A DNA stretch of 61,249 nt from a virus: the IMG/VR virus record IMGVR_UViG_3300050821_004166, positions 1 to 61,249 of that record. One strand, written 5' to 3'. The notes beneath the pieces are model-generated. The model was not told the origin of the DNA and made no database searches. It worked only from the letters and a program-made list of their open reading frames with translations. Positions within the stretch are counted from its first letter, which is position 1; every line of letters starts with the position of its first letter. Shown here one piece after another: positions 1-58,750 of this stretch. A program made the position numbers and the translations under genes.

Positions 1-97
1 CTCGCAGAGCGATGCAACAGCACATCCTGGGGCTTCAAATTAAGCTAGATGCTGCCATTGCCGCCGCCCAGCCCGTCCCGGCAGAGGGGGCGCAGGC
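1..97. repeat. Terminal direct repeat, copy 1 (identical to 61153-61249); circular-assembly overlap or terminal redundancy
   Basis: Base-by-base comparison: positions 1-97 equal 61153-61249. Confidence 0.95.
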
Positions 98-335
98 GGA
101 GTACGAACGTGGTGTAAAGGACACCACAAAATTCTATCTTGAGCGAGAGGACAAGCAGAAGGAAAGGTACGACGCACTATACGCCTTGAAACTTGGCGGT
201 AATCTTTTCGCGTTAGATTTGCAGAAACGGTTGGAACAAGTGAATGATAGCTTCAAATTAATCGTTGCCGCCATAGCATCTCCAGCTACGGCAGCGCCAG
301 CGGGCTATCCAAAGCCTACGAAGCCAGCGGAATGA
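12..335 (+). CDS. C-terminal part of the junction-spanning gene. Coiled-coil protein directly upstream of TerL; possible small terminase.
   Basis: The frame stays open back to position 3 and continues in frame from ATG 61077 through the repeat (..STRRAMQQH..). The real gene is 61077..61249 joined to 98..335, about 136 aa. Its stop overlaps the TerL start (ATGA at 332). Confidence 0.5.
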   Translation: MQQHILGLQIKLDAAIAAAQPVPAEGAQAEYERGVKDTTKFYLEREDKQKERYDALYALKLGGNLFALDLQKRLEQVNDSFKLIVAAIASPATAAPAGYPKPTKPAE

Positions 336-1051
336 GCACCGCGACCATCAGCGCCTATCGCTTCGACCGGGATACCCTCCTCCGTAGGCAGGACCTCACG
401 ATCGACTGTATGGCGCGTGGGATAGAGGGACCAGACGGCTACTGGATTCCCGGACCGTTGTTCTGGATGAACACACTAACGCAGACGTTCGACCCCCACT
501 ACCTCGACAAAGGCTTGGCGTCCCCACACCGCACCTTCCCGCAGATGCCCTATATGTCTTGGCTGTTCTCGAGGCTGCTCACGGAGTCGATCGTCTTCAT
601 TCCAAAAAGCCGCGAGATGCTTCTCTCCTGGGCGGTCATCGGCTATTGCGTGTGGCGTTGCCAGATTTTCCCCGGTACACAGGTGCTCGTTCAGTCCCAA
701 AAGCACGATAAGGCGTGCGAGCTGGTCAAAGGAACGGAACCTCCGGGGTACGCCTACACTCTCTACGACCGGCAAGACTCTTGGCTGAAGAAGCGATACC
801 CGCTGGCGATGCGAGCGGAAGACCTGCCGGCTGACAACGTGGTATGGGCGAACCATTCCGAGATTCAGGCGATCGGGAGAGGCGCCGACCAAGTTCGCCA
901 GTACCACCCCACCGTCTACGTGGTTGACGAGATGGCGTTCATGGAGGAAGCTGCGGCCAGCTTTGGGGCGGCTACGCCTGTAGCCAAGCAGATAATCTGC
1001 GTTAGCTCCGCTGGACCGGGTTTTTTCGGAGACATATGCAGCGAGGATTAG
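332..1051 (+). CDS. terL: Terminase large subunit, ATPase domain only (N-terminal half of a split TerL)
   Basis: 239 aa. P-loop-like FIPKSREMLLSW (deviant, no GK), Walker-B-like VYVVDEMAF, C-motif-like VSSAG. No nuclease domain in this ORF. Confidence 0.6.
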   Translation: MSTATISAYRFDRDTLLRRQDLTIDCMARGIEGPDGYWIPGPLFWMNTLTQTFDPHYLDKGLASPHRTFPQMPYMSWLFSRLLTESIVFIPKSREMLLSWAVIGYCVWRCQIFPGTQVLVQSQKHDKACELVKGTEPPGYAYTLYDRQDSWLKKRYPLAMRAEDLPADNVVWANHSEIQAIGRGADQVRQYHPTVYVVDEMAFMEEAAASFGAATPVAKQIICVSSAGPGFFGDICSED

Positions 1052-1884
1052 TTCAGATCGAGCAGCCGGGACCGATCATTCGGGTGTTTCCGATCCGAAC
1101 CAGCTATACGCCAAACGATGAGTGGGCGTTCGTTGGCTTCCCAACCTTGTTTCCCCCTGGCACGCGCCAAACTCCTGTTCACGTCAGCGTGGTTTTCAAA
1201 TGGTGCAGAGACCTGGCCGAGAAGATTGCTGCGTCCTGGCGCGATCATTACGACACCGTTCTAATCGGCGGGCCGGCCTACGGCGACTATGGCGACGACT
1301 TCACTCCAGGGATGTATATGAAGCACGGCTGCACCATCACAAGCCGCGGTTGCGTGAAGCATTGCGGTTGGTGCCCAGAGAAGGACCGTCCCCTCCGCGA
1401 GCTGGCCGTCAAACCAGGTTGGATAGTCCAGGATTCGAACCTCCTCGCGTGCTCTGAGCGCCACGTTCGCGCCGTCTTCGACATGCTCCGGGAGCAAGAT
1501 CGATCGATTACCTTCTCCGGAGGGCTCGACAAGCACTTCCTAAAGCCATGGCACAGGGAACTGTTCGACTCCATCAAGATCGAGGCTCTGTGGTTTGCCT
1601 GCGATATCACCAGCGACCTGCCCTGGCTCGAGAAGGCTGCCGAGATATTGGAAGGAATTCCGACCGAGAAGCTCCGCTGCTACACGATGATCGGCTATGA
1701 CGACGTGCCCGAGCCGTTAGATGTGGCCGAACATCGTATCGAGCGAGTCTTTGAACTGGGGTTCCTGCCGTTCTGCCAGCTATACAAGCCCGACGACTAC
1801 GTGAAGATTTACCCGCCAGAGTGGAAAGCCGTTCAACGCAAGTGGGCTAGGCCGGCAGCGTACCGACCTAGGAAGACGGCATGA
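1036..1884 (+). CDS. Radical SAM-type enzyme, function unknown
   Basis: 282 aa. Canonical CX3CX2C with an aromatic residue before the last Cys: SRGCVKHCGWCPE. Overlaps the TerL-N stop by 16 nt. Confidence 0.6.
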   Translation: MQRGLVQIEQPGPIIRVFPIRTSYTPNDEWAFVGFPTLFPPGTRQTPVHVSVVFKWCRDLAEKIAASWRDHYDTVLIGGPAYGDYGDDFTPGMYMKHGCTITSRGCVKHCGWCPEKDRPLRELAVKPGWIVQDSNLLACSERHVRAVFDMLREQDRSITFSGGLDKHFLKPWHRELFDSIKIEALWFACDITSDLPWLEKAAEILEGIPTEKLRCYTMIGYDDVPEPLDVAEHRIERVFELGFLPFCQLYKPDDYVKIYPPEWKAVQRKWARPAAYRPRKTA

Positions 1885-2189
1885 CTCCTCCCGCGGTCCT
1901 TATCGAGTGCCTCGACCAGTTCAAGAAGGATTGGCAATCCACGACCTGTCCCCACTGTGGCGCCGGCAAGTGGAAGAACTCCCCGTTCTGCAGGCGGTGT
2001 TCAATCCGGTTACAGCGCCGCAACCTGTTTGGACGTTTCAAACACTGGACCGGGCACCGCATGGCGGCAAACATCCGATTCTATTGCAAGGATGGATACC
2101 TCGAGCCGCTACACCGTTGGATAACCTGGTACGACCGCTGCCGAGACTATCTGGGAGTAAGCGAGAAAGATGCTCTCGTCGTTGACTGA
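1881..2189 (+). CDS. Small Cys-rich zinc-ribbon protein
   Basis: 102 aa. CPHCG...CRRC pairs. ATGA overlap with the upstream gene. Confidence 0.45.
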   Translation: MTPPAVLIECLDQFKKDWQSTTCPHCGAGKWKNSPFCRRCSIRLQRRNLFGRFKHWTGHRMAANIRFYCKDGYLEPLHRWITWYDRCRDYLGVSEKDALVVD

Positions 2190-2213
2190 GGTGGGACAAA
2201 CAGTCTTAGGCGT

Positions 2214-3218
2214 ATGGATGAGCACGTCACACTCGAGGAAGTTCGCCAGCCGATCGGCAATATGCCCATCATTCCGCGAGGGTGTGACGAATGGTCCGAA
2301 TCAGATCACGGCTATAAGATTCTCAAGGTCCACTATTCCGCTGACCCCGTGAAGACGCCGGCCTGGGCCGAAGCCCAAAAGAAGAAGAGCCCCTCCGAGA
2401 ACACCTTCCGCAGAGAATTCGAGATCGACCACTACGCCGGCAGTGGCGCGGCCATGTATCCGGAGTTTAGCCGCGGGTTGCATGTCGTCAGACCGTTTCC
2501 CATTCCGCACCTCTGGACTCGGTATATGTTCATCGACCCCCACAAACGCCGGCCGCACGCCTTCCTGTGGATGGCAGTGTCTCCGGATGGAGACCACTGG
2601 TACTACCGCGAGTATTGGCCGAGCCGCGTCTACGGCAAGAAGGGCGACACCCCGGAGGACGACAAGCTCTACAAAGTGGACGAATACGTTCAGGCACTCA
2701 AATACATGGAAGGGCCGGATATCAAACACTTCTCTTCCGGAGGCTTCGCGGACAACCAGGGGCAGACCGAGAAGATCCGCATACGGGTAATGGACACGCA
2801 CGGCAAAGCCATCTTCACCACCACGACCGCGGGGAAGGATGAACCGGAGACGTTCTGGGACCGCTACGAGAAACTTGGCATACGTTGCGTCGAGGCCATC
2901 AAGGATGTTGGTTCGGGACGTGACACGGTGGGGATGCGCCTACGACCGCGCAAGGTCATGCTTCCTTCAGGCGAAGCTGAAGAGGCAATCATTCATATAT
3001 TCGACACACTTCCGGAGTTGATTCTCGAGTTGCGGTCGGTGCGCTGGCCGAGTTTGACTCCGGAGCAGGCAGAGAAGATGGATCCCACCGACAAGGTAAT
3101 GCAGAAGCGATGCCACATGACAGACCTGATTCGGTACGGCGAGATGCTTGACCCCATTTACGTTGGACCGGCGCAGGCGCGGAGTCTCAATCCTGTGCAA
3201 GAGGGCATCAGCTATTAG
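2214..3218 (+). CDS. terL: Terminase large subunit, nuclease domain (C-terminal half of a split TerL)
   Basis: 334 aa. RNase-H-fold terminase nuclease pattern: YMFIDPHKRRPHAFLWMAV, IRVMDTHGK, HMTDLIRYG. Also the lid-like segment FRREFEIDH. Confidence 0.65.
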   Translation: MDEHVTLEEVRQPIGNMPIIPRGCDEWSESDHGYKILKVHYSADPVKTPAWAEAQKKKSPSENTFRREFEIDHYAGSGAAMYPEFSRGLHVVRPFPIPHLWTRYMFIDPHKRRPHAFLWMAVSPDGDHWYYREYWPSRVYGKKGDTPEDDKLYKVDEYVQALKYMEGPDIKHFSSGGFADNQGQTEKIRIRVMDTHGKAIFTTTTAGKDEPETFWDRYEKLGIRCVEAIKDVGSGRDTVGMRLRPRKVMLPSGEAEEAIIHIFDTLPELILELRSVRWPSLTPEQAEKMDPTDKVMQKRCHMTDLIRYGEMLDPIYVGPAQARSLNPVQEGISY

Positions 3219-3219
3219 A

Positions 3220-3250
3220 TTGACAATCCAGTGAGCCGGTAAGCTAGACT
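3220..3250 (+). promoter_or_regulatory. Promoter-like element, family 1: TTGACA-N19-TAGACT
   Basis: TTGACA at 3220-3225 and TAGACT at 3245-3250. Same hexamers and spacing as 13297 and 22384. Confidence 0.5.
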
Positions 3251-3275
3251 CTGGACGGTAGAGGAAACGGGACCT

Positions 3276-3312
3276 CGGCATCCTTCGGTTGTCATCGGTC
3301 CGAAGGTTGCCG
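3276..3312 (+). other. Strong RNA hairpin in the portal gene leader
   Basis: CGGCA-T-CCTTCGG (3276-3288) pairs with CCGAAGG-T-TGCCG (3300-3312): 12 bp with one T-T mismatch and an 11-nt loop. No U-tract follows. Confidence 0.55.
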
Positions 3313-3329
3313 GGGTGCGAATCTAAATT

Positions 3330-5582
3330 ATGGCAATATCTGCCACGGCAAACCCCACCGAGAACAAATCCGCTGCAATCATCGGCACCGGCCAAAGCGT
3401 GATGACCGAGGCCGAGCGCAACAAGGTCGAGGAAACCCGCGAGAGAATCAAAGCAAGCGCGGCGTGGCTTCACGACAACTTTTGGGGTGAGTGGCAGGAA
3501 GCCTTCCGGTCCTACGAAGTAAAGACAGAAAAGCTCATCTATCCTCCTGGGCATCCTCAAGCTGGCAAAGAAGACAAGACGCGCACGAACATCGCCATGC
3601 CTGAGATGTTTGTCGGAATTCGGAAGAAAGCCGTCCGCAAAAGCCGCCGGCCGCCCAACATCAACGTTCGATCTTCCGATCAGCAGATAGGAGACTTCCT
3701 GTCTCACATGGCAACCGTCCAGTGGGACCGCGCCGGCGAGCAGAAGTTTCAACGGCGCCACGTTCTTCAGGGAGACTTGTTCGGCATTTCGATCAAGCTC
3801 CATTACTACGACCAGGTAAGCCAGCAAAGGAGCTTGCGCTTCTCTACCGATAAGATTCTCAAAGAGCTTTACGTCAAGATCGATGAGAACGACAAGACGC
3901 GGAACAACTGGGTAATGGCCGATGAGGATGACAAGCGATCAGTCCGCGCTTCTCGGCTGAACGAGCAGGACCGGGCGAACGTGATGGCGAGTCTGGGACC
4001 GGAAGTGAGCCAGTCAAAGAACTTCACGCGGTTCGACGGGCCGGTATCGGAGTGGAAGTTTATCGGAGACTGGTACCCAGAGCCCGAGTTTGACGCCGTG
4101 CAGTCCTCGGCTTGGCATGTCTTCGAGGGCATCAAGGACGCGGAATGGCTGGCCTACATGGCAAGCCAGAAATTCACCGACCCGGAGACCGGCAAGAGGC
4201 GTCCGATCATCGATCCGAAGTTTCTAGGCGAACTCGAGACCTATCGCCCGCTGGACACCATGAACAAGAGCGAGGTATCGGGCGCCGAGCGCGACTTCAA
4301 GCAGACCCTTCGAGACGTCATCTTCAAAGCCCGGCCATCCTTCGAAGCGAGATTGATTCCTGGGCGCCGATACCTCATCCACCAGGACTACACCTTCCGC
4401 AAGGGGTTTTGCTGGATACGCTTCATCGGGAACGAGAAAGTGTTCTTAGGCGAGATGCCGCTACCATGGGACCTCGGCGGGCGCTATCCGATCAGCACCT
4501 ATTGTCCGATGCCGTCCCTGCTGCAAGGGATTGGAGACTCGACGGCACGCAAAGGCCGGCACCTCTGGAAGCTCCACAACATCACCGTCTCGCAGCGCAC
4601 CGACCTAATAACGAACGCTCTCAAGAAGCTGGTTGCGCTTCCCAAAGGCGCCGATATCCCTCCCGAGATCATGGATCTCGGCCTGTTCCGCGTCCTTTTC
4701 AGCGACAACTACCGGGAGATCATTGCGGCGTTCCAGGCTGCCGGCCCACAGGTTCCCGCGCAAGCGTTCGAGCAGGAAGCTGCAGTAATGCGAATGCTTC
4801 AAATGGTCGAGCCATCGATCATTGATTTCGGGGAGCAGAGCCAGGCTGTACCTAACACCGGAAAGACCGCAACCCTCGGCATCCTTCAGCAGCGATCGGC
4901 GGACGGCATCAGCGGGGACGAACTCGAATGCCTGAACGACTCGATTGCCGAGGAGACCGATATCAAGCTGTCCATGTGGCAGCAAGTCTTGAACGAGCGC
5001 GAACTAGAAAGCCTGGGACAGAGTTTCCAGAAGAGTACGTTCTGGACGATCAGCACCGCGGGCGGGCCGGATAAGCCTCGCCGGATGTTTGACGACCCCC
5101 TCGAGCTGCAGGTTGATTTCGAAGTAGAACCCGAGATGGGGAGCACGCTGGCGCTGGATGACGCCATCAAGAAGAACCAGGCGCAGGAGATTTACGATCG
5201 GGCAATCGCTGCCCCTACCGTTTGGAACGTCCAAGAGGCTGCTCTACGGTTGGCGCGTGCGTCCGGGGTGTCAGAGCCAGATAAGCTCATGGCACCCCCG
5301 CCGCCGCCACCGCCACCGCCACCGCCGCAAGAACCGAAGATTTCCGGCACGGTCAATGTCAAGGTCGAGGCCGACGTGGAAACGAGCCATGTCTTAATGT
5401 CCAAGGTGTTCGGCATTGCCCCGCCGTCTCCGCAAGACACGGAAGTAGCGCAGGCTCACGAAAAGCTCGCGGAAGCCGCAGAGAGCGCGAAGCACGCCAG
5501 ATTCCTCCTGGGAGAAGACCCGGACGAGGTTGCTGCCGCCCAAGGGAACAACGGCGCGGGTGGACCGCCGGCAGGCCCGTGA
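3330..5582 (+). CDS. Putative portal protein
   Basis: 750-aa ORF immediately after TerL; size and position are typical. Contains an 11-Pro run near the C-terminus. No motif-level proof. Confidence 0.55.
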   Translation: MAISATANPTENKSAAIIGTGQSVMTEAERNKVEETRERIKASAAWLHDNFWGEWQEAFRSYEVKTEKLIYPPGHPQAGKEDKTRTNIAMPEMFVGIRKKAVRKSRRPPNINVRSSDQQIGDFLSHMATVQWDRAGEQKFQRRHVLQGDLFGISIKLHYYDQVSQQRSLRFSTDKILKELYVKIDENDKTRNNWVMADEDDKRSVRASRLNEQDRANVMASLGPEVSQSKNFTRFDGPVSEWKFIGDWYPEPEFDAVQSSAWHVFEGIKDAEWLAYMASQKFTDPETGKRRPIIDPKFLGELETYRPLDTMNKSEVSGAERDFKQTLRDVIFKARPSFEARLIPGRRYLIHQDYTFRKGFCWIRFIGNEKVFLGEMPLPWDLGGRYPISTYCPMPSLLQGIGDSTARKGRHLWKLHNITVSQRTDLITNALKKLVALPKGADIPPEIMDLGLFRVLFSDNYREIIAAFQAAGPQVPAQAFEQEAAVMRMLQMVEPSIIDFGEQSQAVPNTGKTATLGILQQRSADGISGDELECLNDSIAEETDIKLSMWQQVLNERELESLGQSFQKSTFWTISTAGGPDKPRRMFDDPLELQVDFEVEPEMGSTLALDDAIKKNQAQEIYDRAIAAPTVWNVQEAALRLARASGVSEPDKLMAPPPPPPPPPPPQEPKISGTVNVKVEADVETSHVLMSKVFGIAPPSPQDTEVAQAHEKLAEAAESAKHARFLLGEDPDEVAAAQGNNGAGGPPAGP

Positions 5583-25992: not shown

Positions 25993-27000
25993 ATGCCCTT
26001 CTTCAGATCGGTGAAGCAGGTACGGCCCGCGCAAAAGCCGCGGGGAAGCGTATCGCAGTTCATCACCGAGAACTTCCGGCATTTCAATGCTCGAGAACTC
26101 CGGGAAGCCGCCGAGGCCTACAAGCGGCTGGTCGATTCAGGCGGCAAGATGTTTGTAACCGTTGCCGGCGCAATGTCCACCGGAGAACTCGGAATCTCTC
26201 TGGCGAAGATGATTCGAGAGGAGAAGGTTCACGCCATTTGCTGCACGGGCGCCAACCTCGAGGAAGACATTTTCAACCTGGTAGCACACTCTAAATACAA
26301 GGTAATTGCAGGCTACCGGCAGTTGGACAACGACGACGAGAAGAGCATCCATGACGCCGATATGTCGCGTGTGACCGACACGCTCATTCCGGACAAGGCG
26401 GCCATGGACACCGTTTCGAAAGCCATCTTCGATATCTGGAAGCGGGCCGACAAGGAGGGCGAACGGTCGTTCCCGCACGAATACGTCTACCAGTTGTTCC
26501 ATGAGAAGACCTTAGACTTTGACGCCGACCCAGAAGACAGTTGGGTTCTCGCCGCGCACCAGAAGAACCTGCCGCTGTTTGTTCCAGGATGGGAGGATTC
26601 GACGCTAGGGAACATGCTCGCGGGGATGCGGATAAAGGGCGAGATCACTAAGCCGATCGTGAAGGACGGCATCGATTACATGATGGCTCTGGCGAAGTGG
26701 TACGAAGCGGAAAGCGGCGGGAAGGGCGTAGGGTTCTTCCAGATCGGAGGTGGAATTTCCGGCGACTTCTCGATATGCGTGGTTCCACTGCTGAAACTGG
26801 ACTTGAAAAAGACCGTCCCGTTCTGGGCCTACTTCTGCCAGATCAGTGATTCACTTGCCAGCTATGGAGGGTATTCCGGAGCGCCACCGAACGAAAAGAT
26901 CACTTGGGCGAAGATCGACAAGAGCACGCCAACATTTATGATTCAATCGGACGCTTCGATCGTTGCACCGCTTATTTTTGCCTACGTTCTCGAGGAATGA
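25993..27000 (+). CDS. Deoxyhypusine synthase-like (DHS / homospermidine-synthase family) enzyme
   Basis: VTVAGAMSTGELG..AICCTGANLEEDIFN matches the DHS signature TTAGGVEEDLIK. C-terminal NEKITWAKI...DASIVAPLIFAYV matches EAVSWGKI...DASLVFPLLV, including the catalytic Lys. Confidence 0.85.
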   Translation: MPFFRSVKQVRPAQKPRGSVSQFITENFRHFNARELREAAEAYKRLVDSGGKMFVTVAGAMSTGELGISLAKMIREEKVHAICCTGANLEEDIFNLVAHSKYKVIAGYRQLDNDDEKSIHDADMSRVTDTLIPDKAAMDTVSKAIFDIWKRADKEGERSFPHEYVYQLFHEKTLDFDADPEDSWVLAAHQKNLPLFVPGWEDSTLGNMLAGMRIKGEITKPIVKDGIDYMMALAKWYEAESGGKGVGFFQIGGGISGDFSICVVPLLKLDLKKTVPFWAYFCQISDSLASYGGYSGAPPNEKITWAKIDKSTPTFMIQSDASIVAPLIFAYVLEE

Positions 27001-27001
27001 T

Positions 27002-30000
27002 GTGCCGCCGACCGACACCGAGACGACAGAAACTCAGACGCAAGACCCGCTAGATGAGTACCTCGCGCTAAGGGATAAGACTGCGAAAAAGAAGTCTCCG
27101 AAGGAAGACCCAATCGCAGCCTACTTAGCTGCGCGGGAAGCAGACACTAAAGCCACCGACAAGCGATCGGCTGAAGTAGAAGCCAAAGCCGCAGCAACGC
27201 CGGCGGCGGTTCCCGTTGTTTCCCAGAAGATGGAGGAGTCTCCTGCCGGCAAGGGATTCGCAGCAGCAGAGACCGCAGGACAGAAGATATTCGGTGAGCA
27301 GCCGACCCCGGCAACGGTTGCAGCTCGAGGACCGTCATCTCTATTCCAGACGACTCCTCCTGCTCCCCCGCCTCTCCCTCCAGAAACAGTAACCGAGCCG
27401 GTCAAGAGCATGGAGCAGATCGGGCGGGAGTCTCCGTTTGGAAAAGGGACGGCGCCGGCAGAGCTTCCGAAAGATGTTGCCGACCTGAAAGCCTCGATCG
27501 AGGATTCCTCGACCAAGATCAAAGGCACGCAGAACAGGTATCCGAGCGGCATTCCGCAGGAAATCTACCCCTGGTACAAGGACGAGGTTGCCAATCACAA
27601 CCAGATGGTGGCGAGGTTTAACGACGCCATCAAGAAGCTGCCGCCAAGCCAGCGAGCCGAACAGAAGCAAACCCCTCTAAGCACCGCGCCGTTAAGTCTT
27701 TCGCAGCAAGCCGATCGGGTTGGTAAGCCGATGGTCCCCTTGACCGGTCCGCAGAAGCCGATAGACCTGACGAAATACCCGCGGAACATCTTCACAAACG
27801 ACTTGGCTATTCCCGAACAGACTCCCGAGCAGGTGAAAGCTCAGAACGCAGCCGAGGACGCGCAGCGAGCGCAAGACGATGCGTTGTCTCGAGGGAGGCC
27901 GGTATCCAGGACAGGCGTTCGCGGACTGCCGGTAACAAAGAAAGAGCTTGATGACGAGAAAGCGGGGATGGATGAGATCACGCGGGCACTCACGACGGGT
28001 TCGCGCAAGCTGCCGATTCCAGCGTTCACCGGTTTTCAGAAAGGGACAGGTTTGCCGACCGGCGCTAGGGTGTCCAGTGTTGGCGAACTCGAGGACCTGA
28101 CCGACGAATATCTCAGCCGTCCGGAGATCCCGAAGACTCGAGCTCAAGCGATGGCCGCGGGCATAACCTCGGACGCGGTGAAAACGCTGAATGATATGTT
28201 CCTGTCCCCTGTGGGCATCGTGGCGACGGGGACCGGGCTAGTGGCGGCGAACGCGCTGGCGAAAGCTGGACAAGCAGGAAAGGAAGCTCTCGAGCTAGGC
28301 GCCGAGTACCAGGCGATGAAGCGGGCCGGCGCGACCGCTGCGGAGCTTCTGGTACAGGAGGGAAAAATCCATCAGGCCATGCTGTCAGTGGCTAAAGCGC
28401 AAGGCGTGCTAAAGACCGCTGCAAGAGCCGGGCAAGTCGGTGGCGCGGCATTCGGCGCACAGGGCGCGAACGGGGTAATCGATGGAATCAAGGAGCAAGA
28501 CACTTCGAAGATTCTCGGCGGGTTAGGGCAGATCATACTTGCCGGCGCCGGCGAGGCTGCACTTCACCGGGCGGGCGGGCTCGAGTCTGCGGTCGGTGGA
28601 TCCGTCGAAGCGGAAGCGCACCGGCGATACCAAGAATCGTATAAACCTCCAGGGGACGACGACGACGACGAGCCACCGGGCGGGGGACCTCCTCCGGACG
28701 TACACGCGAAGCTGCTCGAGGACGAGCTGCACCGGGCGAAGGCCGAACATTCGGCCAAAATCCTGGAAGATGCGGCTGCAGAGACCAGAAAAGCGGCTGG
28801 AATCGACACAGAGCCACCAGGAGAGCCGGAAAAACCTGCAAAGCTCAAGGTGCCAGTACGCGCCAAAAAGCCCGCCCTGCCTGCCCCTGTTGAGCCAGTT
28901 GGCACAAAAGAAGAGCCGGAATCCTCAAGTGAGGGAGAAAAACAGGAAAAAGCGGTTATTCACACGTTCCCAGGCGAAGAAGGAACTCAGTACGAAGTAG
29001 CGAAGGTCGATGGAGGGTTTTCGGTTTCTCTGCGTGACACGGAAGCCGGCGAGGTATTTCCGTCGCACCGCATTTACAAGACTGAAGAACAAGCGGTAGC
29101 TGCAGCAAAGGGCTTCGGAGAAAAATCGACGGGCGAAGAGGCTAAAAGAAAAGCCGCTGAACCTGAAGCGAAGGAACCAGAACTTTCCGGCGAAGATGCC
29201 GTCACGGCCAAAATCTATCAGGATGCGATCGACCACGACAACGAACTCCTCGCAAACGAAAAGCTAACTTGGGAGAAGCGCGAGAGGATTGTCGAGCATC
29301 GAGACAACTATCAAAAGGACTTGGACAAGATTCAAGGGAGGCGGGTTGAGGATGTCGGACCTCCAGAGTCGAAGGGAGAGCGCCGAGCGATCGAACCGGA
29401 AGCGGAAGGGAGGTTAGAGGAAGCCAAGAGAAAGCGTAAAGCGAATCAAATTGAATTCGAGAAGAAGGCCGGGCAACCAGAGGAAGAAGCCGCGCCGATA
29501 AAGCCAGGCGACAAGATCAAGATGCGCGGTGGCATGAGGCGCCGAAGCATCATGTCAGGCCTGCCGTTAACGGACGAGCCTAGACACCAGCCTGAAGCCA
29601 CAGAGGCGAGCGCACAGCCGACCCCACCGCCGAGCGACCGCTGGACCGCCGACCGCGGTGCGATGCCGGGAGAACCCGAGCTATTCCTGGACGTTCCGGA
29701 GGACGGCGACACCGAGAAGGCCAAGGCTGCGATCATTCAGCGCGATCGGAAAGCGGGCCGTGCCACATGGGAACTCGTTCACATGGAGGGCGGCAAGCCA
29801 AAGAGCGGAGGGATGTTCAGCACGCCGCAAGAAGCCGCAGCTCGCGCCGAGAAACTGTACTCGCCACCAGAAAAGGAAGAACAGCCAGAGCACGTCCACA
29901 AAGAAGGCGACCGCGTAACGTGGACGGGCCCAAAGGGCGAGAAACTCAGTGGACAGATTCGGTCGATCGAACCACATCAGAAAACTGGACCGGATGACCT

Positions 30001-33000
30001 GCGGAAGCCGTTAGCGTCGATCACCGTCGATCAGCAAGCAGTGATGCGGATTCCTGGACGCAAGGGCGGCGTGCCGATCGGGCGCGTCGAGATGGTCCCT
30101 CTCGAGAAACTCAGTCCTGAAGGCGCACCGGAGAAGGCCGAGGCTGCTACCGAATCTGAAAAGAAGCCGGTCGTTCCGTTCTCAAAGCCTCGCCAGGAGG
30201 ACGAAAGAGAACGAGCAAGAGGAATCATTGAGGACTTCGTTGCTAAGTGGGATAGAGAATTCAAAGAGTGGCAAGAGAGCGGTGGACGTGGAGAACCTCC
30301 TCCAAAACCTTTCCAACTAGAGCATCCTCCGGAAGATATTGGCGTTTTCCAGTACATCAAGACGTTGCCAAAACACGTGCAGGAGTATGCCCGCAAGTTT
30401 TACAAAGCCTACAGAGATGAGGGAGTGGCGGCTGGACAGGAGGTTGACCCGAGAGACTATGGGATATCTGGCGAAGAAGCGGAGGAACTCGACGGCATAC
30501 TAAAGCAGCTCACCAAGCCAGGGAAAGCCGCGCCAGAGGAAGAGCCACCGGAGACAGAACCGGAACCAGAGAAGGCTGCCGAACCTGAAAAAAAAGCGGT
30601 CGTTCCGTTCTCGAAGCCAGCAGAAGCGGAGGCGCCGGCTAAGTTTCAAGAAGGCGACTTAGTACGGCTGACTGACGAACCGCACAAAGCTGGAACACTC
30701 ACACGTTTGAGTTTGAGCAAGACTACGGCGGTAGTCAAACTCGAAAACGGAAACACCGTCTATGTTCATCCAGACAGAATCGAACTGCGTGGGAAGCCAG
30801 CGGAGAAACAGAGGTACGTGGTTTCGAAGGCTGGAATGAAGCCGGGCATGTGGAAGATCATAGATACCACAGACGGCACTACAGTCCGTTCAGGGCTCGA
30901 GAGCAAGGCCGGCGCGGAAGCGATTGCTGCCGGCATGAAGTCTGAGGATCAACATATCTCAGGAGCAACGCCGTCAGGGGCAATCACTCCTCGCGTTCCA
31001 CTATCAACGGTAAAGCCGCAAAACAGACCGCATATGGTTGTCCGTGAGGTACGCGACCGCGACGACAAATTGCTTGGATACGAGTATTTCCCATACGACG
31101 GAACGCCAGAGGACGCGCTTGCGAAAGCAGAGTTAGTCACCACGCAGATGTGGGAGAAGTACCCGGACGCCTCCAACATGGGCAGCCGTATTCTCGCAAC
31201 AGGTAAAGACGGCAAACCGCTTTACGTTATGTCTCCCAATTTGCAACACGTCGCAGAGATGGGGACGCCGACAGCGAACTACATCCAGACTGGTGAAGGT
31301 GAACCGCCGGCTGAAATGAAGGCCAGTTACGAGGCAGCAAAGAAAGCAGGCGATGAAGCCGCCGGTAAGGCTCTTTGGTGGAGAAAGCCTCTTCCGAAGC
31401 TAGACGCAGACACCGAATACAAACTCCTGAAATTGATACACCCGAAGGAGGGACAGGTCGGAGCTGCCGAGCTAAGGAGAAGGTACAGAATTAACTACGG
31501 AGAGACGATAGATCAGGGCATTGTTGCTCAGTTCCTTAAAGAGCAAGAAGGATTGACACAAACTGGCGCAGGTGCCAAACTCCCGACCAAGAGCTTTGCT
31601 CCGCAGGTAATCGCTGACTCAAGCGGAAAATGGAGCGGGAACGCAGTCAGCTTTCCTACGGAACAGGAAGCCCAGGATTACGTCAACGACCTTAAAAGCC
31701 GTTGGATGGCCGTCCGTGACACTCGCGTAGTTGAGCAGGACGTTCCGGCTACTCATTCCTTTGCGAATGGCAAGCTGGAAATAGTCAAACCGGAGGAAGC
31801 CGATGCCGCCACCGCCGATCAAGCCGCCGACCGAGAAGGATCTGGACGAGATAGTGGTACAGCCGAGCCTGCTCGAGTCGGTCAAGAGCCATTGGAAAGA
31901 GAATCTTCCGAAGCTATACAAGGCGTACCAGAAGAGCGGGAAGCTGCAGGAGAAGGCGAAGAGGGCGGTGCAGGAGGCGAAGTATCTGGCCGCGAGCCTG
32001 GTGGCGCAGGGACAGGAATGGTCCGAGGCGTGGGTGACAGCCTCGAGGGAAAAGATGTACCTGGAACCAGAGGAAAGCCTGGACGACCAGGAATCAGCCG
32101 AGTAAACCCGTCAGACGGTCCGCAAGGCAATTTCTACCACATCACGGAATCCGACCAGCTAGGCCAGGCCGGCCTAAAGCAGAAGTTCAAAGACAACGTA
32201 ACAGCGATCAAGCTGCTGCAAAAGCTCGAAGCCGAGAACCGCCTCGCCACCACTGCGGAGCAAGCCGTTCTTGTGAAGTACGTCGGATGGGGCGGGTTAT
32301 CGGCTGTCTTCAAACCATGGGAAGACCGGCAATGGACGAAAGAATCCGATGAGCTTAGGGACCTGCTTCCTAGCGCCGAGTGGGAGGCAGCCAGCGGCAG
32401 CACGCAGTTTGCCCATTACACCTCGCTCGAAGTGATTCAAGGGATGTGGAGCGCACTCGAGCGCATGGGGTTCACTGGCGGGCGCGTTCTCGAGGATGCT
32501 GCCGGCGTGGGGCACTTCATGGGTGGCGCCCCTCTGGATGTTGCAGCGAAATCGAAGTGGGCGGCGGTCGAGATCGACCCTCTCTCAGCACGTATCACAC
32601 AGCAGCTCTACCAGCCGGTCAAGGTCTTCAACAGCCCCTTTGAGAAGGTGGCGTTCCCGAATAACTTCTTTGACGTGAACATCACGAACGTACCATTCTC
32701 CACGACCTCGCCGGCAGACCCCAAGTACGACAAGTATGGCTTGAACCTGCACAACTATTTCATCGTCCGCGGACTCGACCTGCTACGGCCGGGCGGGATT
32801 ATGGCCGTTATCACTTCCCGCGGGACGATGGATTCAGGCGGCAAGCACCGTGAACTGATGGCCGACCGCGCCGACCTCCTGGATGCCGTGCGGCTGCCCA
32901 AGACAGCGTTCAAAGGGAACGCCAATACCGAAGTGGTTGCGGACGTCCTGATATTCCGGAAGCGGGCGCCGGGAGACCCCAAGGGCGGCGAGGCCTTCCA

Positions 33001-36000
33001 GGACTCCATCCGAATGAAAGTCGAGAAGGACGGAAGCACGCACGTTGTTCCCGAGCGTGCAGATCCCTCCGACTTCAAGTTGAATGAATTCTTCCTGAAG
33101 CATCCCGAGAAGATTCTCGGCCAGCAAGGCATGACCGGGACGATGCGCGGGCCAGATCAATACTCCGTCGAACCTAACACCGCCACGACACTGAAGGAGC
33201 AAATCAGCAAGAACCTCACTCCTCCGCAAAACTCCTATCAGAAGGCCTCGGCATCGCAATCTCTCAGGATCGAAGCCGTCCTGTCCGCAGAGCGCCAGGC
33301 CGAAATCAAAGCCAAACCGGATGCTCTACACATCGAGGGCGACAAGCTCTACCAGAACACGGCAGAGAATCTGCTGACCATAACCTCGATCGGAGAAATT
33401 CTTGTAACTCCTCGTTCAGAGTGGGTGTACGCGCTGAAGCCTCTCGACGTCAGCCCGCCAGTGTTTCGCAAGATCAAGAGCGTGCTTGGCGTGCGGGATG
33501 CTGTGCGGGATGTGATGCTGGCGGAAGCTGCCGACAAACCCAAAGTAGAAGTTGACGCGCTTCGCAAGCAGCTCAACAAGACCTATGACAAGCACGTTGC
33601 GACCTACGGGCCCACTGGCGACGTTTCGAACACGAAGCAGCTCCTCATGGATCCGGACTTCCCGCTGCTGATATCTCTCGAGTCTTACGACCCGAAGACG
33701 AACACCTACGTAAAATCTGCTGACATTTTCACGAAGCCGACTGTGCGTCCGGAGATGACCGTGCGTCCGGAGAATCCTCGAGACGCCATGCTGGTTTCGA
33801 TGAACGAGAAGAATGGCATCGATATCCCGTTCATGGCGAAATCGATCGGGCAGACCGAGGATTACGTCATCAACGACCTGGTGGGTAAGGACCTCATCTA
33901 CAAAAACCCTGAAGGCGGTTGGGAGGACAGCGCGAGTTATCTGTCTGGACAGGTACGGTGGAAGCTAAAGGCAGCGCAGACCGCCGCGGAACTCGACCCA
34001 GACATGCAGCGCAACGTCGAGGCGCTAAAAGCGGTTCAGCCTCAAGACAAAACTTTGGCTAATCCTCCAGCAGTGAAGTTGGGCACGCCTTGGATGCCCG
34101 TGGGAGACATCGAGCAATTCATCAGAGAAACGCTGGATTTGGGAAGGTCTGTATCGGTATCGCACCCCAAAGGAGTGCCGCTTTGGACCGTTAGGCATCC
34201 GAACAAGGACACTTCCGTTATGAATGGCGCCAATTACGGAATCCAGGATGAATCCGGAACCCCCATTTTGTGGGGAACGGACCTTGTTGAACATGCGCTA
34301 AATCAGAAGACTCCTAGCGTTTACACCGGCAAAGGAGAGCAACGAGTGTTCAGTCTTGACCTGACCGAGAGGGCGAAGGACAAGATAAGCGATCTTCAGG
34401 ACAAGTTCAAAAAATGGATCTGGAAGGACGAGGAAAGAAGCTCACGCCTGCTCGATTACTACAACGAGAACATCAACAACATGGCGCAGCGGACCTACGA
34501 TGGTTCGCACCTGACGATTCCGAGCATGGCGCTAGGGATGACTATGCGGGCCCATGGGAAAAATGCTGTGTGGCGCATCCAGCAATCCGCTAACACGTTG
34601 CTGGCGCATGAGGTAGGCAGCGGCAAGACCATGATTCTTATAGCGTCAGCTCTAGAGGCGAAGCGTCTCGGAAAGTGGAAGAAGCCGGCATTGTTTGTTC
34701 ACAACGCCACGCTCGAGCAATACCGGATGCTGATTCCGCAGGCATTTCCGACCGCCAAGATTCTAGTAGCCAGGCCGGAAGACTTTGACAAAGAAAACCG
34801 CCGGCGCCTTCTTGCGCGAATAGCGACTGGCGATTGGGATACGGTCGTCATAGCGCACTCCCAGATACCGAAGCTGCCAGTGTCGGAAGCCGGCCTGCGT
34901 AAATTCATGGGAGACGAGATCGAGATTCTCAAAGGGTATCTGCGAAAGATACAAATGGAGGAGGCTTCAGCTTACCATGACTCCGGCGGGCGAGGAGGGA
35001 AACGGCAGAAGAGCCAAACTGTAAAACAGTTGGAAGCGACGATCGACAAAGCCGAGGCCCGCATGGAAAAGAAGATCCATGACTACAACGCTGACCCAAC
35101 GGTGTCGTTCGAAGAAACGGGCATAGACGCGATTCTGGTGGACGAGGCTGACGAGTTTAAGAATCTGATGTACCACACCAAAATGACCAGGGTGAAAGGC
35201 CTCGGCAATACCGAGGGCTCTAGCCGGGCGTTCGACCTGTACGCCAAGATCCGCGTCGTTCAGGCGATGAACAACGGCGGCGGCGTGGTATTTGCCACTG
35301 GAACGCCGGTTAGCAACACCATGGCGGAAATTTACAACCTGCAGCGGTATCTCGCTCAAGGCGACCTTGAAGCAATGGGGATTGACCACTTCGACGCTTG
35401 GGCAGCGCAATTCGGAGAGACGAAAACCGATTGGGAGACTTCTCCTAGCGATCCGACGAAAATTCAGGCAGTTACCAGGTTTGCCCGCATCCAGAACGCG
35501 CAGGAACTCTATAACCACACCGCGCCGTTTATGGATGTGGTGTTCTCGAAGGACATTCCGGGAATCAAGCTGCCCAAACACAACCAGCAGAAGATAGTGG
35601 TTCCGAGCTATAAGGAACTCGAGGACTACAACCATGAAATCATGGACCGGGCCGAGCATGTCAAAACCGGCCAGGTAGACCCCAAAGACGACAACATGCT
35701 GAAGATCACCAGCAACGGGAGTGCTGCGGCGATCGATATGCGATTCGTTAAGCCGGGCAGCGCAGTGAATCCCGCGTCCAAGCTCTACCATGTGGCGCTA
35801 GATGTTTACAAGAATTGGAAAGACTCGGCAGCCAACAAAGGTGTGCAGCTAATCTGCCTTGATTTGGGAGTGCCCGACACTAGGAGCGTGTCGGCGGGAG
35901 AACTGAAGTTTGGAGCGTATAAGTGGTTGCGCGAGCACCTTATCTCTATGGGTATTCCGGGAGATGAGATCACCTGGATACAGAAGTACAACAAGCCTGA

Positions 36001-39000
36001 AGCCAAGCAGCAGATGATTCGAGACACCAATTCCGGCAAGATCAGGGTGCTTATCGGTTCCACCGAAAAAATGGGAGTCGGGTTGAACGTCCAGGAACGA
36101 CTCATCGGCGGGCATCACGTTGACATGAAATGGCGCCCGCGGGACGCCATTCAGCGCGAAGGGCGATGGGTGCGTCAAGGTAACAGCAATTCCGAGGTGT
36201 TCACGAAGTATTGGACGGCGGAAAAGAGCATCGATTCCTACAAGTATTCGACCCTGGCCGCAAAAATTTCGTTCATCAATGACTTCCTGCAAGGCAAGAT
36301 CACCGCGTCCGATGTGGAAGATATCAGCGGAGAGGCGGTAACGTTCGCAATCATCAGCGCGGCGACCACCGGCAAGACGGAAATCTTCGAATTGGCGAAG
36401 ACCCAGGCAGAGATTCGCAAGCTCGAGCGGGCTCGTTTTGCTGCCGAGACGGAGCTTTTAGGAATCAAACAGCAGTTGGTGCACGGAAAAGCCCGTCTGA
36501 AAGCTACCCAGGAAGAGATAGAGCAAGCCAAGACCGAAGTGGAAGCCGTCAAGAAAGTCTACGATCCGGAAAACTTCCAGATCACGCTAAACGGGAAGCT
36601 CTACACCGACAAAGAAGAAGCTAAGAAGGCTTTGCAAAAAACAGTCTTAACGCTAAAAGACAGACAGACCATGGGGACACAGATCATTGGTTCCTACCTG
36701 GGAGTGCCGATCACTTTCGATGGACATGGGGCAGAGTTAGGAAAAGACGGAAAGCGCAGTTGGTACGGGTACAACGTTAAAACTCCGCGTCGGTCTGTGG
36801 CAATCGAACACACCACTACCGGAACGTTATTCGATGACCCTATAGCCAGTGTTATTCACGGAGTCGTGAGAGCGCCTGAGAACGACCTCGAGAAAGACAT
36901 TGCGGAAAAAGCCACGCTCAAGCAAGACATTCCCAAACTTGAGGAACTGTTAAACAAAACAGACTTTCCTCCAGAGAAGGCCAAAAAGCTCGAGGAATTG
37001 CAAGTGAAGGAGAGAGGACTCCTGAAGGCGCTAGGCTTGCTCGATGACGACACCCAAGCGGCGGGCGCGATTGCCAGCGGCAAAACCGATGTAACCGTCA
37101 CCGGAGCAGAAGGAGACAAGGAGGAAGACGACGAGGAGGGAGCGGTAGGCGCACCAGAAGGCGAGCCAGAACCACCAGACAAACCAGAGGTTGGCGCCGG
37201 CAATAAGCTGTTCACCAAGGAAGCCAAAGAAGCCGCAGAAAAGGACCTCAGTAAGAAGAGTCGGGAAATGCGTGCCGGCGTGGATCCCACCATGATTAAG
37301 GACCTGGTGGTAATCGGTGGCTTCTATCTCGAGGCTGGCATCCGAGACTTCGCTGGTTGGGCCGACAAGATGCGGGCGCACTTCCGCAAGACCAGAGACC
37401 CCCAGAAGTTTGAACCGCACCTGCAGCCAATCTACGAGCAGGCGATCAAGGCCATCAACAAGCAGAAGCCGGGATTCGCGGCCAACATCCGTCTTTCGAA
37501 CCTCCGGACCTCGGACCAGGTAAAGGAACTGATTCGAGAGACCGCACGCTCCGCTGCCGGCCGAATCGAGGGGCAACGCCGCGGCGAGGTGCCGTTCGCG
37601 CAAACCAAGGCCATGGCTCGAGAGCTAATCCGCGAAGGGCACATGACCGAGAAGGACCTCATCGACATGAAGAAGGGGACGGCGCTAAACGATGCCGAGC
37701 TAAAGGCTGCCCGTTCCATCCTGGTGTCGGTGAGCGAGGACCGCGCCAAAGCTCTGGATGAATTCCGGAAGGACGACAGCAAGGAGAACCTGCTCCGGGT
37801 TATGGAAGTGGTTGAACGTCAGCGGGCCGTCCAGGCTGCCGTCAGTGGCGCCACCGCGGAAGCTGGCCGAGCTCTGAACAGCATGAAGATAGCCGCCGAG
37901 GCGCTGAAGTCTCGATCGGCACGCGATAAGGCGCTGGACGAGCTAGGCGGGGACATTACCGAGGAGATGATTCGCAGGCTCGCGCAGATCCCGCCAGATG
38001 ACTTCATCGCCATGAACAAGTTTGTCCGGGACCACACCAAGTTTACGACCATTGAGAAGCTGAATTCCTACTGGATAGCGAACATCCTCTCCGGTTGGCA
38101 GACTCACGCTCGAGTCGCGTTCTCTAACATCGTGTGGGCGACCACGCAGCTAGGCATCCGTCCCCTCCGCGGGTTGATTGACGCGCCGGTATCGCGCCTG
38201 ATGGGTACCGAGCGCAAATACTATGCCGGGGAAACCCTGCCGGCCATGGTTGGATGGTTTGAGGGGATTCCTGAAGGACTGCGGAAAGCCATCTTTATCA
38301 TGCAGCACGGCTACAACCTTGACGACACCTCGGGCGAGATCGTTACCGACGTCAAGGCACCGCGGTATTACGAATTCCCTGGCGGGCTGAAGAACCCGTT
38401 CAACTATCCGGGCCGGGCGCTAATGGCCGCGCACAACCTTTTCCGCGTGACGAGTCTCGAGAGCGAACTGGCTGCGATTGCAGCTCGAAAGGCAATCCGG
38501 AGCGGCGGCGTCAGTCCGACATTGGGCCAAAGCCGTTACCAAAAGCAATATGCCCGCGAGCGAGCGAATCCGGAAGTGGAAGACGTGGAAGCAGCACAGA
38601 AGTTTGCGCGGTACACCGCGTTCCTGGATAAGCCGGATAAGTTCTCTCAGTTGATGATTCGCATACGGGAATGGCGAGTGCCCGAGAACTACGCTGCGAT
38701 CGGAGGAGTGAAGCCGCTGCGGTTTGTGGTGCCGTTCATCAATCTGCCTTGGAACGTCTTGAAGGCAGGCGTGGAGGTAACACCTGCAGGCGCACTCAAG
38801 TTCTTGTCGAAAGATGCCCGCAACCAGCCAGGCAAGGCAGCCGACATTATTTCGAAGGCGCTATTCGGTGCTGCCGTGATGGGTGCCGCGGCCATCCTGG
38901 CTATGAACGGGAAGCTAACCGGGCCTGCTCCAAAAGACCCAGGCAAGAGGGAGGAATTCTACCGGCTTGGGAAAAAGCCCTATGCCTTCCGAGTGGGCGA

Positions 39001-56783: not shown

Positions 56784-57299
56784 ATGAGAAAACAGCGTAA
56801 CGCAGCAAAACCGAAGAAACGTAAGTGGGGAGCTAGAACCGGGACCGGTAAGAAGAAGCGGAAGCTATACACTCCTCGCACAAAGCAGTTAGCCGCGGTG
56901 CAGCTATTCGTCTCCGGAAGCAAGTACGCCGAGATCAGCAGGAAGCTAGGCCTCGACCGCGAAACCGTTGTCCGCATCGTCACCCAAGAAGAAGTTCATG
57001 CCATGGTCGAGGGATTCCGGGAAGCCGTCCTCAAGATGGTTCCGAACGCCCTGGTAGCTCTGGCACGATTGATAGACATTGGAGACCGGACCGCGGTTAT
57101 CGAGTGCCTGTACGGCGCCCGCGTCTTAATCGATCGGCACGAAATTGCTCCCGAAGCCGAGGAACCTGTGCGAACCTACGACTCTACCAGGGTGCTGTTC
57201 TTCGGAAAATTCGGTAGGTGGCCGAGGGATGAGGAGTTAAAGGCGTTCGATAAGACGATTCCGACAAAGCCGATCGTCAAAGGAGAGTTTACGAATTGA
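56784..57299 (+). CDS. HTH protein with a basic N-terminus; candidate small terminase subunit or regulator
   Basis: LFVSGSKYAEISRKLGLDRETVVRIV..EEVHAMVEGFREAVLKMV..ALVALARLI resembles HTH-type TerS N-terminal regions. Confidence 0.4.
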   Translation: MRKQRNAAKPKKRKWGARTGTGKKKRKLYTPRTKQLAAVQLFVSGSKYAEISRKLGLDRETVVRIVTQEEVHAMVEGFREAVLKMVPNALVALARLIDIGDRTAVIECLYGARVLIDRHEIAPEAEEPVRTYDSTRVLFFGKFGRWPRDEELKAFDKTIPTKPIVKGEFTN

Positions 57300-58750
57300 T
57301 CCTTAGAGACCCTGATTTGGCAAAGGTTCTCGAGAAAGAGGCTTTTACGGTCGATCCATTCAAGCGAGATCCCCACGTCCTGGCCGAGCGGTGGACCGGC
57401 TGTTACGAATCCTCCCGCGGCGATATCTTCACCAAGGAGTCTAACCGGCATCCCGCGAAGATGGCAGTGGGGCTCTGCTACCGGATATTCCAGCACGGCG
57501 AGGAGATGGGTTACTGGAAGAAGGGCGACGTCATCCTCGACCCGATGGCCGGGATTGGGACGACTCTCGTTGTGGGCGCCACACTTGGCTACCGCACGAT
57601 CGGCGTGGAGCTAGAACGCCATTTCGTGGAGCTCTGCGAGCAGAATATCCAGTTCTCGGAGAACTTCTGGCACACCATGGGCTTCGCGGTAGTGATTCAG
57701 GGGGATGCGCGGTTCCTCCCGGAATGTGTGCTGTCTCCCGAGCTGACGAACGGGTTAGTTACTTCCCCGCCCTACGCCGACATGGGCATGGCCTCTGCTA
57801 TTTGCGGCAAAGCCAGAAAGCTCTACCGGGATGGCAAGGTGGACGAGGCCTTGGCGGTCCTGCGGGAGCAAGAGGAGAAGGAGATTGCAGCGGGGTGGAC
57901 GAGATCCCCGCGGAGCGAGGAGTTTCTGCTGACGCAGTTGAAGAACGACGCAGAGTGGGCTAATGGCTACTCGGGCGCCGTTTCTAGTCCACCCTACGCC
58001 GGCAACATCGGCGGGGATAGCGGCATTGACTCGGAGAAGGAGAAGAAGCTCTCAGGCGTAAACGCGCAGCACAAGATCCCGCAGCGTTACGATGGCGTGG
58101 TGAACTCCCCTCCATTCCTTATGCCGGCGGGCGGCGGCAAGGGGATAGCAAAGACCGGCCATCGATTCGACCCTGGCCTCGCCAACCGTCAGTACGTCCC
58201 CGAGCAATTCAGCAAGAACGGAGCACAGATCGGAAACCTCAGAGACCCGAAGGGAGACCTGGACGCGGTTCTCTCGAGCCCGCCGTACCAAGATCAAATG
58301 TCTTCAGCTCGAGCCCGCGGGCGCGGTCCTGCCGGCGACCGCATCATTGCCGAGAAGAAGATCGAGCACAACAAGCTAGGCGACGGGCCCGACCAGATCG
58401 GAAACCTCCACGACCAGACCTACCTCCGCGCCATGTACGCGGTTTACGAGCAGATGTACCAGGTTCTCAAACCTAACGGTGTGGTGGCTCTCGTCACCAA
58501 GAACCCGGTAAAGGACAAGCAGATCCGGCGCCTTGACCTGGACACCATTGCTCTCATGGAACACGCCGGCTTCCTGCTGATTGAGCACAAGTGCGCGATG
58601 CTCTGCGATGAGGTGCAGCACGGCCATCTATTCGGCGGGGATGAGATCAAGAGGCGGCAGCGCAAGAGCTTCTTTAAGCGGTTGTACGAGAAGAAGTTTC
58701 CGGAGCTTGCCGTCGATTTCGAGGACGTGACTTTTTATAGAAAGGTGTGA
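57296..58750 (+). CDS. DNA N4/N6 methyltransferase with four (S/N)PP(Y/F) motifs
   Basis: HPAKMAVGL, VILDPMAGIGTTLVVGATLGYRTIGVEL (motif I). Then TSPPYADM, SSPPYAGN, NSPPFLMP and SSPPYQDQ. Confidence 0.8.
   Translation: MILRDPDLAKVLEKEAFTVDPFKRDPHVLAERWTGCYESSRGDIFTKESNRHPAKMAVGLCYRIFQHGEEMGYWKKGDVILDPMAGIGTTLVVGATLGYRTIGVELERHFVELCEQNIQFSENFWHTMGFAVVIQGDARFLPECVLSPELTNGLVTSPPYADMGMASAICGKARKLYRDGKVDEALAVLREQEEKEIAAGWTRSPRSEEFLLTQLKNDAEWANGYSGAVSSPPYAGNIGGDSGIDSEKEKKLSGVNAQHKIPQRYDGVVNSPPFLMPAGGGKGIAKTGHRFDPGLANRQYVPEQFSKNGAQIGNLRDPKGDLDAVLSSPPYQDQMSSARARGRGPAGDRIIAEKKIEHNKLGDGPDQIGNLHDQTYLRAMYAVYEQMYQVLKPNGVVALVTKNPVKDKQIRRLDLDTIALMEHAGFLLIEHKCAMLCDEVQHGHLFGGDEIKRRQRKSFFKRLYEKKFPELAVDFEDVTFYRKV
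58620..58665. repeat. 46-bp perfect direct repeat, copy 2 (identical to 40502-40547), inside the MTase CDS
   Basis: Encodes HGHLFGGDEIKRRQRK in the MTase frame. Confidence 0.95.

Follow-up and report, generated by a model that had tools for sequence, protein, structure and literature searches.

A radical-SAM gene lying between the two pieces of a large terminase gene raises two questions: whether its position says something about packaging, and what the enzyme acts upon. We analysed such a gene in a virus genome of the IMG/VR collection (record IMGVR_UViG_3300050821_004166), taken at its whole length of 61,249 nucleotides and referred to here as the window. The reading that we favour, with a probability of about 60 %, is that of a predicted compact radical-SAM enzyme carried as cargo, which belongs to an uncharacterised and mostly viral family and acts on a macromolecule, possibly phage DNA.

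Organization of the locus

Open reading frames on the plus strand follow one another tightly at this locus. The N-terminal piece of the split large terminase (TerL-N, 239 residues) occupies positions 332-1051 and shows a weak match to the terminase family phrog_5989. The 282-residue radical-SAM protein, assigned from phrog_9298, a family alignment and an AlphaFold2 model, is encoded at 1036-1884, and is followed at 1881-2189 by a basic Zn-ribbon protein of 102 residues (C23, C26, C37 and C40 in a CPHCG...CRRC arrangement), for which Pfam Zn-ribbon matches stay below threshold. The C-terminal piece of the terminase (TerL-C, 334 residues, 41 homologues) lies at 2214-3218; after it, the list of open reading frames has a portal-sized frame of 750 residues starting at 3330. 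Elsewhere, a single open reading frame of 4275 residues at 26963-39790 takes up one fifth of the genome.

A sequence-only reading of the window had described the radical-SAM gene as overlapping the frame upstream and as joined to the Zn-ribbon gene by an ATGA, and both junctions are as described: the ATG at 1036, preceded by GGAG, lies 16 nt inside the TerL-N frame, and the TGA of the radical-SAM gene overlaps the ATG of the Zn-ribbon gene. Within positions 1-3400, no sigma-70-type promoter was found by a consensus scan and no convincing terminator was seen, a weak hairpin at 1132-1145 being within the number expected from shuffled sequences. From the tight packing of the frames and the lack of an internal promoter or terminator, the radical-SAM gene is predicted to be co-transcribed with the terminase pieces, and it is probably translationally coupled to them as well; since it would be expressed along with the terminase pieces in this way, the protein would be made late. 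An intron of group I or group II that would rejoin terL was looked for with Rfam, which detected none in positions 1-4000. A recent foreign origin of the gene was rejected on composition, its GC and GC3 matching those of the flanking genes.

Assignment of the 282-residue protein to the radical-SAM enzymes

The AlphaFold2 model, built from an alignment of 65 sequences, has a pLDDT of 91.8 and shows a small Rossmann-like domain of about 80 residues (approximately residues 14-95, four strands and one helix) followed by a radical-SAM partial barrel (approximately residues 98-280). The best matches in the VIA search were AprD4, TsrM, MgmA, MiaB, RimO, CysS, TokK and OxsB, with Z-scores from 14.9 (AprD4) down to 11 and with 239-263 of the 282 residues aligned; in all eight, a Rossmann-like domain at the N-terminus precedes the radical-SAM core. 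Radical-SAM enzymes account for 45 of the 50 matches listed, including all of the top 42, and Foldseek returned the same structural relatives. The structural model had been proposed as the check on the TIM-barrel radical-SAM fold, and the fold is present. Together with an invariant cysteine triad, the partial barrel and its best Z-score of 14.9 bear out the identification as a radical-SAM enzyme that had been made from the letters of the sequence.

Generic sequence models miss this protein. Only PHROGs names it, through phrog_9298 ('radical SAM domain protein', E 3.2e-14, residues 99-266), whereas searches of Pfam (E 0.1), NCBIfam, PADLOC and, with the single sequence, the PDB gave nothing, and even with the threshold relaxed to E 1 no part of the genome matched PF04055. 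A PDB search with the family profile gave weak matches to RimO, MiaB and MgmA, located in the cluster loop and in the strand that carries the GxIxGxxE-like motif. Because the motif and fold features of the class are present, we read the failure of PF04055 as insensitivity of that model, and the frame at 1036-1884 is assigned, on motifs and the predicted fold, as a minimal two-domain radical-SAM enzyme.

The CX3CX2C motif with an aromatic residue before its last cysteine, as noted earlier, reads R-G-C106-V-K-H-C110-G-W112-C113; its codons at 1351-1374 (plus strand) mark the predicted [4Fe-4S] site. Conservation of the triad among homologues had been set beforehand as a test, and C106, C110 and C113 proved invariant in 176 aligned homologues, as are R104, G105, G162, G163 and D190. 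G162 and G163 (G-G-L-D) form the GGE-like SAM-binding motif, and the segment 'M-I-G-Y-D..E' aligns to 'IVGFPGET' of RimO, a GxIxGxxE-like motif.

Outside the triad, the sole conserved cysteines are C139 and C215, each kept in 98 % of the 176 homologues. An auxiliary Fe-S cluster on C139, C189 and C215 was considered and rejected: in 13 % of the family sequences, Tyr, Phe or Ala takes the place of C189 with no compensating change, which makes a second cluster in the barrel unlikely. The alignment favours a catalytic role for C139 and C215. The N-terminal residues 1-98 contain no conserved cysteine, C57 being kept in only 8 % of the same homologues, and no cysteine occurs beyond C247, the chain ending at residue 282 directly after the core.

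A protein missed by generic models, at a site that a homing endonuclease has visited (see below), might be taken for a degenerate or wholly selfish passenger that lacks any enzymatic function. However, about 55 positions are conserved in at least 95 % of the 176 homologues, all cofactor motifs among them, the best 120 homologues are 63-83 % identical, and GC3 is that of the flanking genes; we regard such a passenger as very improbable.

A split large terminase with a cargo gap

The frames on either side of the radical-SAM gene had been taken for the two pieces of a large terminase, and this placement is upheld by a fused homologue. Pfam and PDB profile searches did not recognise the terminase pieces, and fold search alone did so. 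The fused homologue (P0149, 577 residues) is 43 % identical to TerL-N over its N-terminal part and 49 % identical to TerL-C over its C-terminal part, and its model, obtained from an alignment of fused and split forms, has a pLDDT of 88.6. The model matches the D6E TerL (E 5.6e-14), T4 gp17, Sf6 gp2 and HK97 TerL, as well as the terminase nuclease domains of P22 and SPP1, and we therefore take the flanking frames to be a true large terminase. The ATPase core in TerL-N includes Walker B (VYVVDE) and the strand of motif III; the final strands of the ATPase domain are found in TerL-C, along with the lid and the nuclease domain. The break comes after the helix that follows the strand of motif III and ahead of those final strands, inside the ATPase domain and not at the linker between ATPase and nuclease.

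Such an arrangement is not peculiar to the window. Most of the 41 homologues of TerL-C are stand-alone proteins of about 330 residues, and a few are fused with a TerL-N-like N-terminal part. The two pieces lie between 25 nt and 5.4 kb apart in about 50 related loci (L088-L141); most of the short gaps, too, separate the pieces genuinely, by a change of frame or an in-frame stop, and only L124 and L129 are fused. The comparison of these loci indicates that the split is old and lineage-wide, with the same point used throughout. In two loci (L127:479-2122 and L130:4233-5876) the pieces share a frame and are separated by a single in-frame stop, which could be due to readthrough, recoding or a recent split.

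The gaps contain varied genes. A PCMT-like methyltransferase is present in 20 loci; histidine phosphatase, glycosyltransferases, a class I methyltransferase, a protein with an M15-like peptidase motif, an HNH endonuclease and many unknowns are found as well. One sub-lineage of about 20 loci keeps the PCMT-like methyltransferase, the histidine phosphatase and two unknown genes in its gap. In another locus (L019:9929-10336) a short gap holds a fragment bearing the SPPY motif of N4/N6 DNA methyltransferases, which looks like the remnant of an earlier cargo. A radical-SAM gene in the gap is seen only in the window and in a sister phage (L001). The terminase gap is therefore a general cargo site in this lineage, and this accounts for the position of the radical-SAM gene.

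The DNA of the sister phage is identical to the window outside positions 1935-2378 (plus strand) and about 80 % identical within this tract. It carries 447 extra bp near 2166-2213 of the window, between the Zn-ribbon gene and TerL-C, which encode an HNH endonuclease of 166 residues (L001:1834-2334) with a match to phrog_99 (E 2.6e-24) and an AP2-like C-terminus. As judged from the DNA alignment, divergence confined to such a tract is what one would expect close to a homing endonuclease.

The Zn-ribbon gene had been proposed as a partner of the radical-SAM enzyme, and this proposal did not survive comparison with other loci. It belongs to a small family, with some 50 representatives of about 100 residues, and of the 168 loci searched with the family HMM, L001, L088 and L089 alone gave a copy. 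The profile finds none beside the other 86 radical-SAM loci, and the Zn-ribbon gene is present without a radical-SAM gene in the gaps of L088 and L089, which rules the partnership out. A motif scan of 88 open reading frames downstream of radical-SAM genes flagged nine, of which seven are unrelated small CxxC proteins and two are the copies of the window and of L001. By its sequence distribution, the Zn-ribbon gene is best described as another resident of the terminase gap.

Distribution and genomic neighbours of the radical-SAM family

A large protein search returned at least 1789 homologous sequence clusters, the Atlas clusters being mostly viral. The best 120 of them, to which the identities of 63-83 % given above refer, include none with a Pfam assignment; the closest in the database (P0001 and P0003) are 80-83 % identical. 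Annotated phage and plasmid matches are distant or truncated, members from Bacteroides phage BKO1-TP3 and Marinitoga camini virus 1 being 25-29 % identical over about half the length, and no paper on the family was found in the literature. The only longer homologue, a metagenomic protein of 531 residues (P0162), carries a C-terminal DUF3849 (E 4.7e-30) and scores 18 bits against PF04055, for which the cut-off is 29.5; as the sole case of a domain fusion, it offers too little to build on as a clue to function.

Genomic context was compared in 80 viral and seven genomic loci, the latter from Acidobacteria, Proteobacteria, Chloroflexi and a Nitrosotalea MAG. With tblastn, the flanking genes of the window recur only in L001, which is the same phage, and weakly in L019; in 85 of the 87 loci the flanks are unrelated to those of the window. 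Clustering of 1374 neighbouring open reading frames revealed no conserved neighbour gene. The closest copy with known neighbours (L002, 79 % amino acid identity) adjoins RusA, and its DNA similarity to the window ends inside the radical-SAM frame. These comparisons indicate that the family moves as a single gene between unrelated phage backbones. In L019 the radical-SAM gene lies 3.5 kb upstream of terL and adjoins an open reading frame that clusters with C5 DNA methyltransferases.

This distribution bears on a functional tie to packaging, which had been suggested by the position of the gene. One such explanation is a protein modifier linked to packaging, which would act on a terminase piece, the portal or a virion protein, or would aid the assembly of the terminase halves, so that the position itself would be functional. 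Several features are in its favour: the tight operon with its overlapping start and stop codons, the PCMT-like protein methyltransferase and the phosphatase among the other gap cargo, and the structural relatives RimO, MgmA and Mmp10, which modify proteins. Additionally, an unrelated lineage has an intact TerL (phrog_9), the radical-SAM gene and the portal in this order (L012:1546-4645 and L013:1196-4949), which is a second, independent placement of the gene in a packaging module. However, no packaging gene adjoins the radical-SAM gene in most loci, the closest homologue with known context is the one beside RusA, and about 50 relatives have the split terminase without the radical-SAM gene, so that the split terminase does not need it. 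With the gap being a general cargo site, the functional tie to packaging finds no support, and a packaging-linked protein modifier appears unlikely.

DNA methyltransferase genes are enriched close to the gene. Among 131 immediate neighbours, the commonest named ones are N6/N4 DNA methylases (9) and C5 DNA methylases (6); MT-A70, D12, T1-type Dam, Mom (2), RusA, helicases, portals and terminases also occur. DNA methyltransferases make up 19 of the 260 genes at the first and second positions on either side but 8 of the 429 genes further out in the same loci, an odds ratio of 4.1 (p 8e-4) for loci that are not phylogenetically independent. A methyltransferase is present within 5 kb in only 21 of 71 radical-SAM loci. 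The association is modest, and it may stem from nothing more than a common location at the early/late boundary. The window itself encodes an N6/N4 DNA methyltransferase at 57296-58750 (plus strand, PF01555 above cut-off); on the circular map this gene precedes terL by about 2.7 kb. The Pfam match of this methyltransferase is permuted, profile positions 159-220 preceding positions 2-83.

Candidate substrates and chemistry

A large substrate is favoured for the enzyme because the barrel is short and open and because the relatives RimO, MgmA and MiaB act on proteins or tRNA. A small-molecule or nucleotide-pool enzyme would be the opposite reading: the product of an auxiliary metabolic gene, a dehydratase like AprD4, or an enzyme that produces a modified nucleotide precursor or a signalling molecule. 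AprD4 is the top structural match, and radical-SAM genes are often counted among viral auxiliary metabolic genes. Nevertheless, no conserved pathway partners accompany the gene, neither NrdD nor QueC is encoded in the complete genome, PADLOC gives no match, and the very short barrel would favour large substrates; we consider a small-molecule function rather improbable.

Amongst macromolecules, RNA deserves consideration. The enzyme might modify tRNA or rRNA for host takeover in the manner of MiaB or of RlmN/Cfr, and so tune translation or escape anticodon nucleases. The fold similarity to MiaB (Z 13.2) and the basic character of the family (median pI 8.7) agree with this. RlmN and Cfr use a two-cysteine chemistry, which the two extra conserved cysteines recall. 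However, the protein has no TRAM or other RNA-binding domain, its N-terminal domain lacks conserved cysteines for an auxiliary cluster, Cfr is a weak match (Z 6.8), and no tRNA-related genes are found among the neighbours of the family, all of which leaves RNA with a low probability as the substrate.

For the macromolecule-modifying enzyme that we prefer, phage DNA is our best-guess substrate, a tentative choice made because of the predicted late co-expression, the neighbourhood of methyltransferases and Mom, and the basic pI of the family; the copy in the window is near neutral, at 6.7. None of the top structural relatives acts on DNA: RimO and MgmA act on protein, MiaB on tRNA, TsrM on free tryptophan and AprD4 on small molecules. 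In the chemistry that we envisage, the reduced [4Fe-4S] cluster would cleave SAM to give a 5'-deoxyadenosyl radical, which would abstract hydrogen from the large substrate, with C139 and C215 acting as hydrogen-donor or resolving residues. If phage DNA were this substrate, the modification would take place between replication and packaging and might protect the DNA against host restriction. Going further, the family might represent a new class of radical-SAM enzymes modifying phage DNA, which would introduce an undescribed base or backbone modification late, in step with packaging, and thereby evade restriction, with C139 and C215 taking part in the chemistry; this we regard as possible but doubtful.

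Implications

A well-conserved, mostly viral radical-SAM enzyme without assigned function, present in at least 1789 clusters, thus escapes the models of Pfam, NCBIfam and PADLOC. Its association at close range with orphan DNA methyltransferases and Mom makes its members candidates that can be tested for a new nucleic-acid modification or for counter-defence. The locus also indicates that a gene indispensable for packaging can be maintained as two pieces, with the space between them receiving accessory genes, and it advises caution, since function should not be read from a position inside a packaging module.

Comparison with known systems

The best family match, phrog_9298, supplies a name alone and no tested function, and comparison with known enzymes is more informative. 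B12-binding, SPASM, QueE-like and viperin-like enzymes had been suggested as possible subfamilies; the layout is nearest to the B12 type, while the other three are unsupported by domain, partner or PADLOC searches. A C-terminal Cys-rich domain of the SPASM/twitch kind is absent from the protein. QueE matches the core only (Z 9.0), and QueC (PF06508) was not found in the complete 61-kb genome. Viperin similarly matches the core only (Z 9.9), and PADLOC, which we take to include the pVip models, gave no match of the protein to viperin-type defence models at E 1. PflA, again a match to the core only (Z 10.2), would go with a glycyl-radical partner, and NRDD (PF13597) was not found in the same genome.

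From the model, the protein most resembles enzymes with an N-terminal Rossmann-like domain, namely the B12-type class and the methylthiotransferases. MiaB and RimO match its fold with Z-scores of 12.5-13.2, but it lacks their three-cysteine auxiliary-cluster site and their TRAM domain; because no cysteine is conserved in the N-terminal domain, the auxiliary cluster of the methylthiotransferases is not expected. The B12-type enzymes TsrM, MgmA, TokK, CysS and OxsB, together with AprD4, share the two-domain layout over 250-263 aligned residues (Z 11-14.9) as well as the cluster loop 'T-S-R-G-C...C..C'. In contrast to these, the protein is about half their size, has no C-terminal domain, and confines its N-terminal domain to some 80 residues. 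This domain superposes on the corresponding domains of TsrM and MgmA; it is truncated and without a Pfam match, and unlike the B12-type class the protein shows neither a PF02310 match nor a DxHxxG motif. The corresponding Rossmann-like domain of AprD4 is not known to bind B12.

For the split gene, the closest known parallel is nrdA of phage Aeh1, which is split by the free-standing homing endonuclease mobE. In both systems an essential gene is found in two pieces, and in the sister phage of the window the split likewise contains an HNH endonuclease, surrounded by diverged sequence. The terminase differs from nrdA, however, in that its split is old and lineage-wide, and the gap has by now become a cargo site of several genes, extending up to 5.4 kb.
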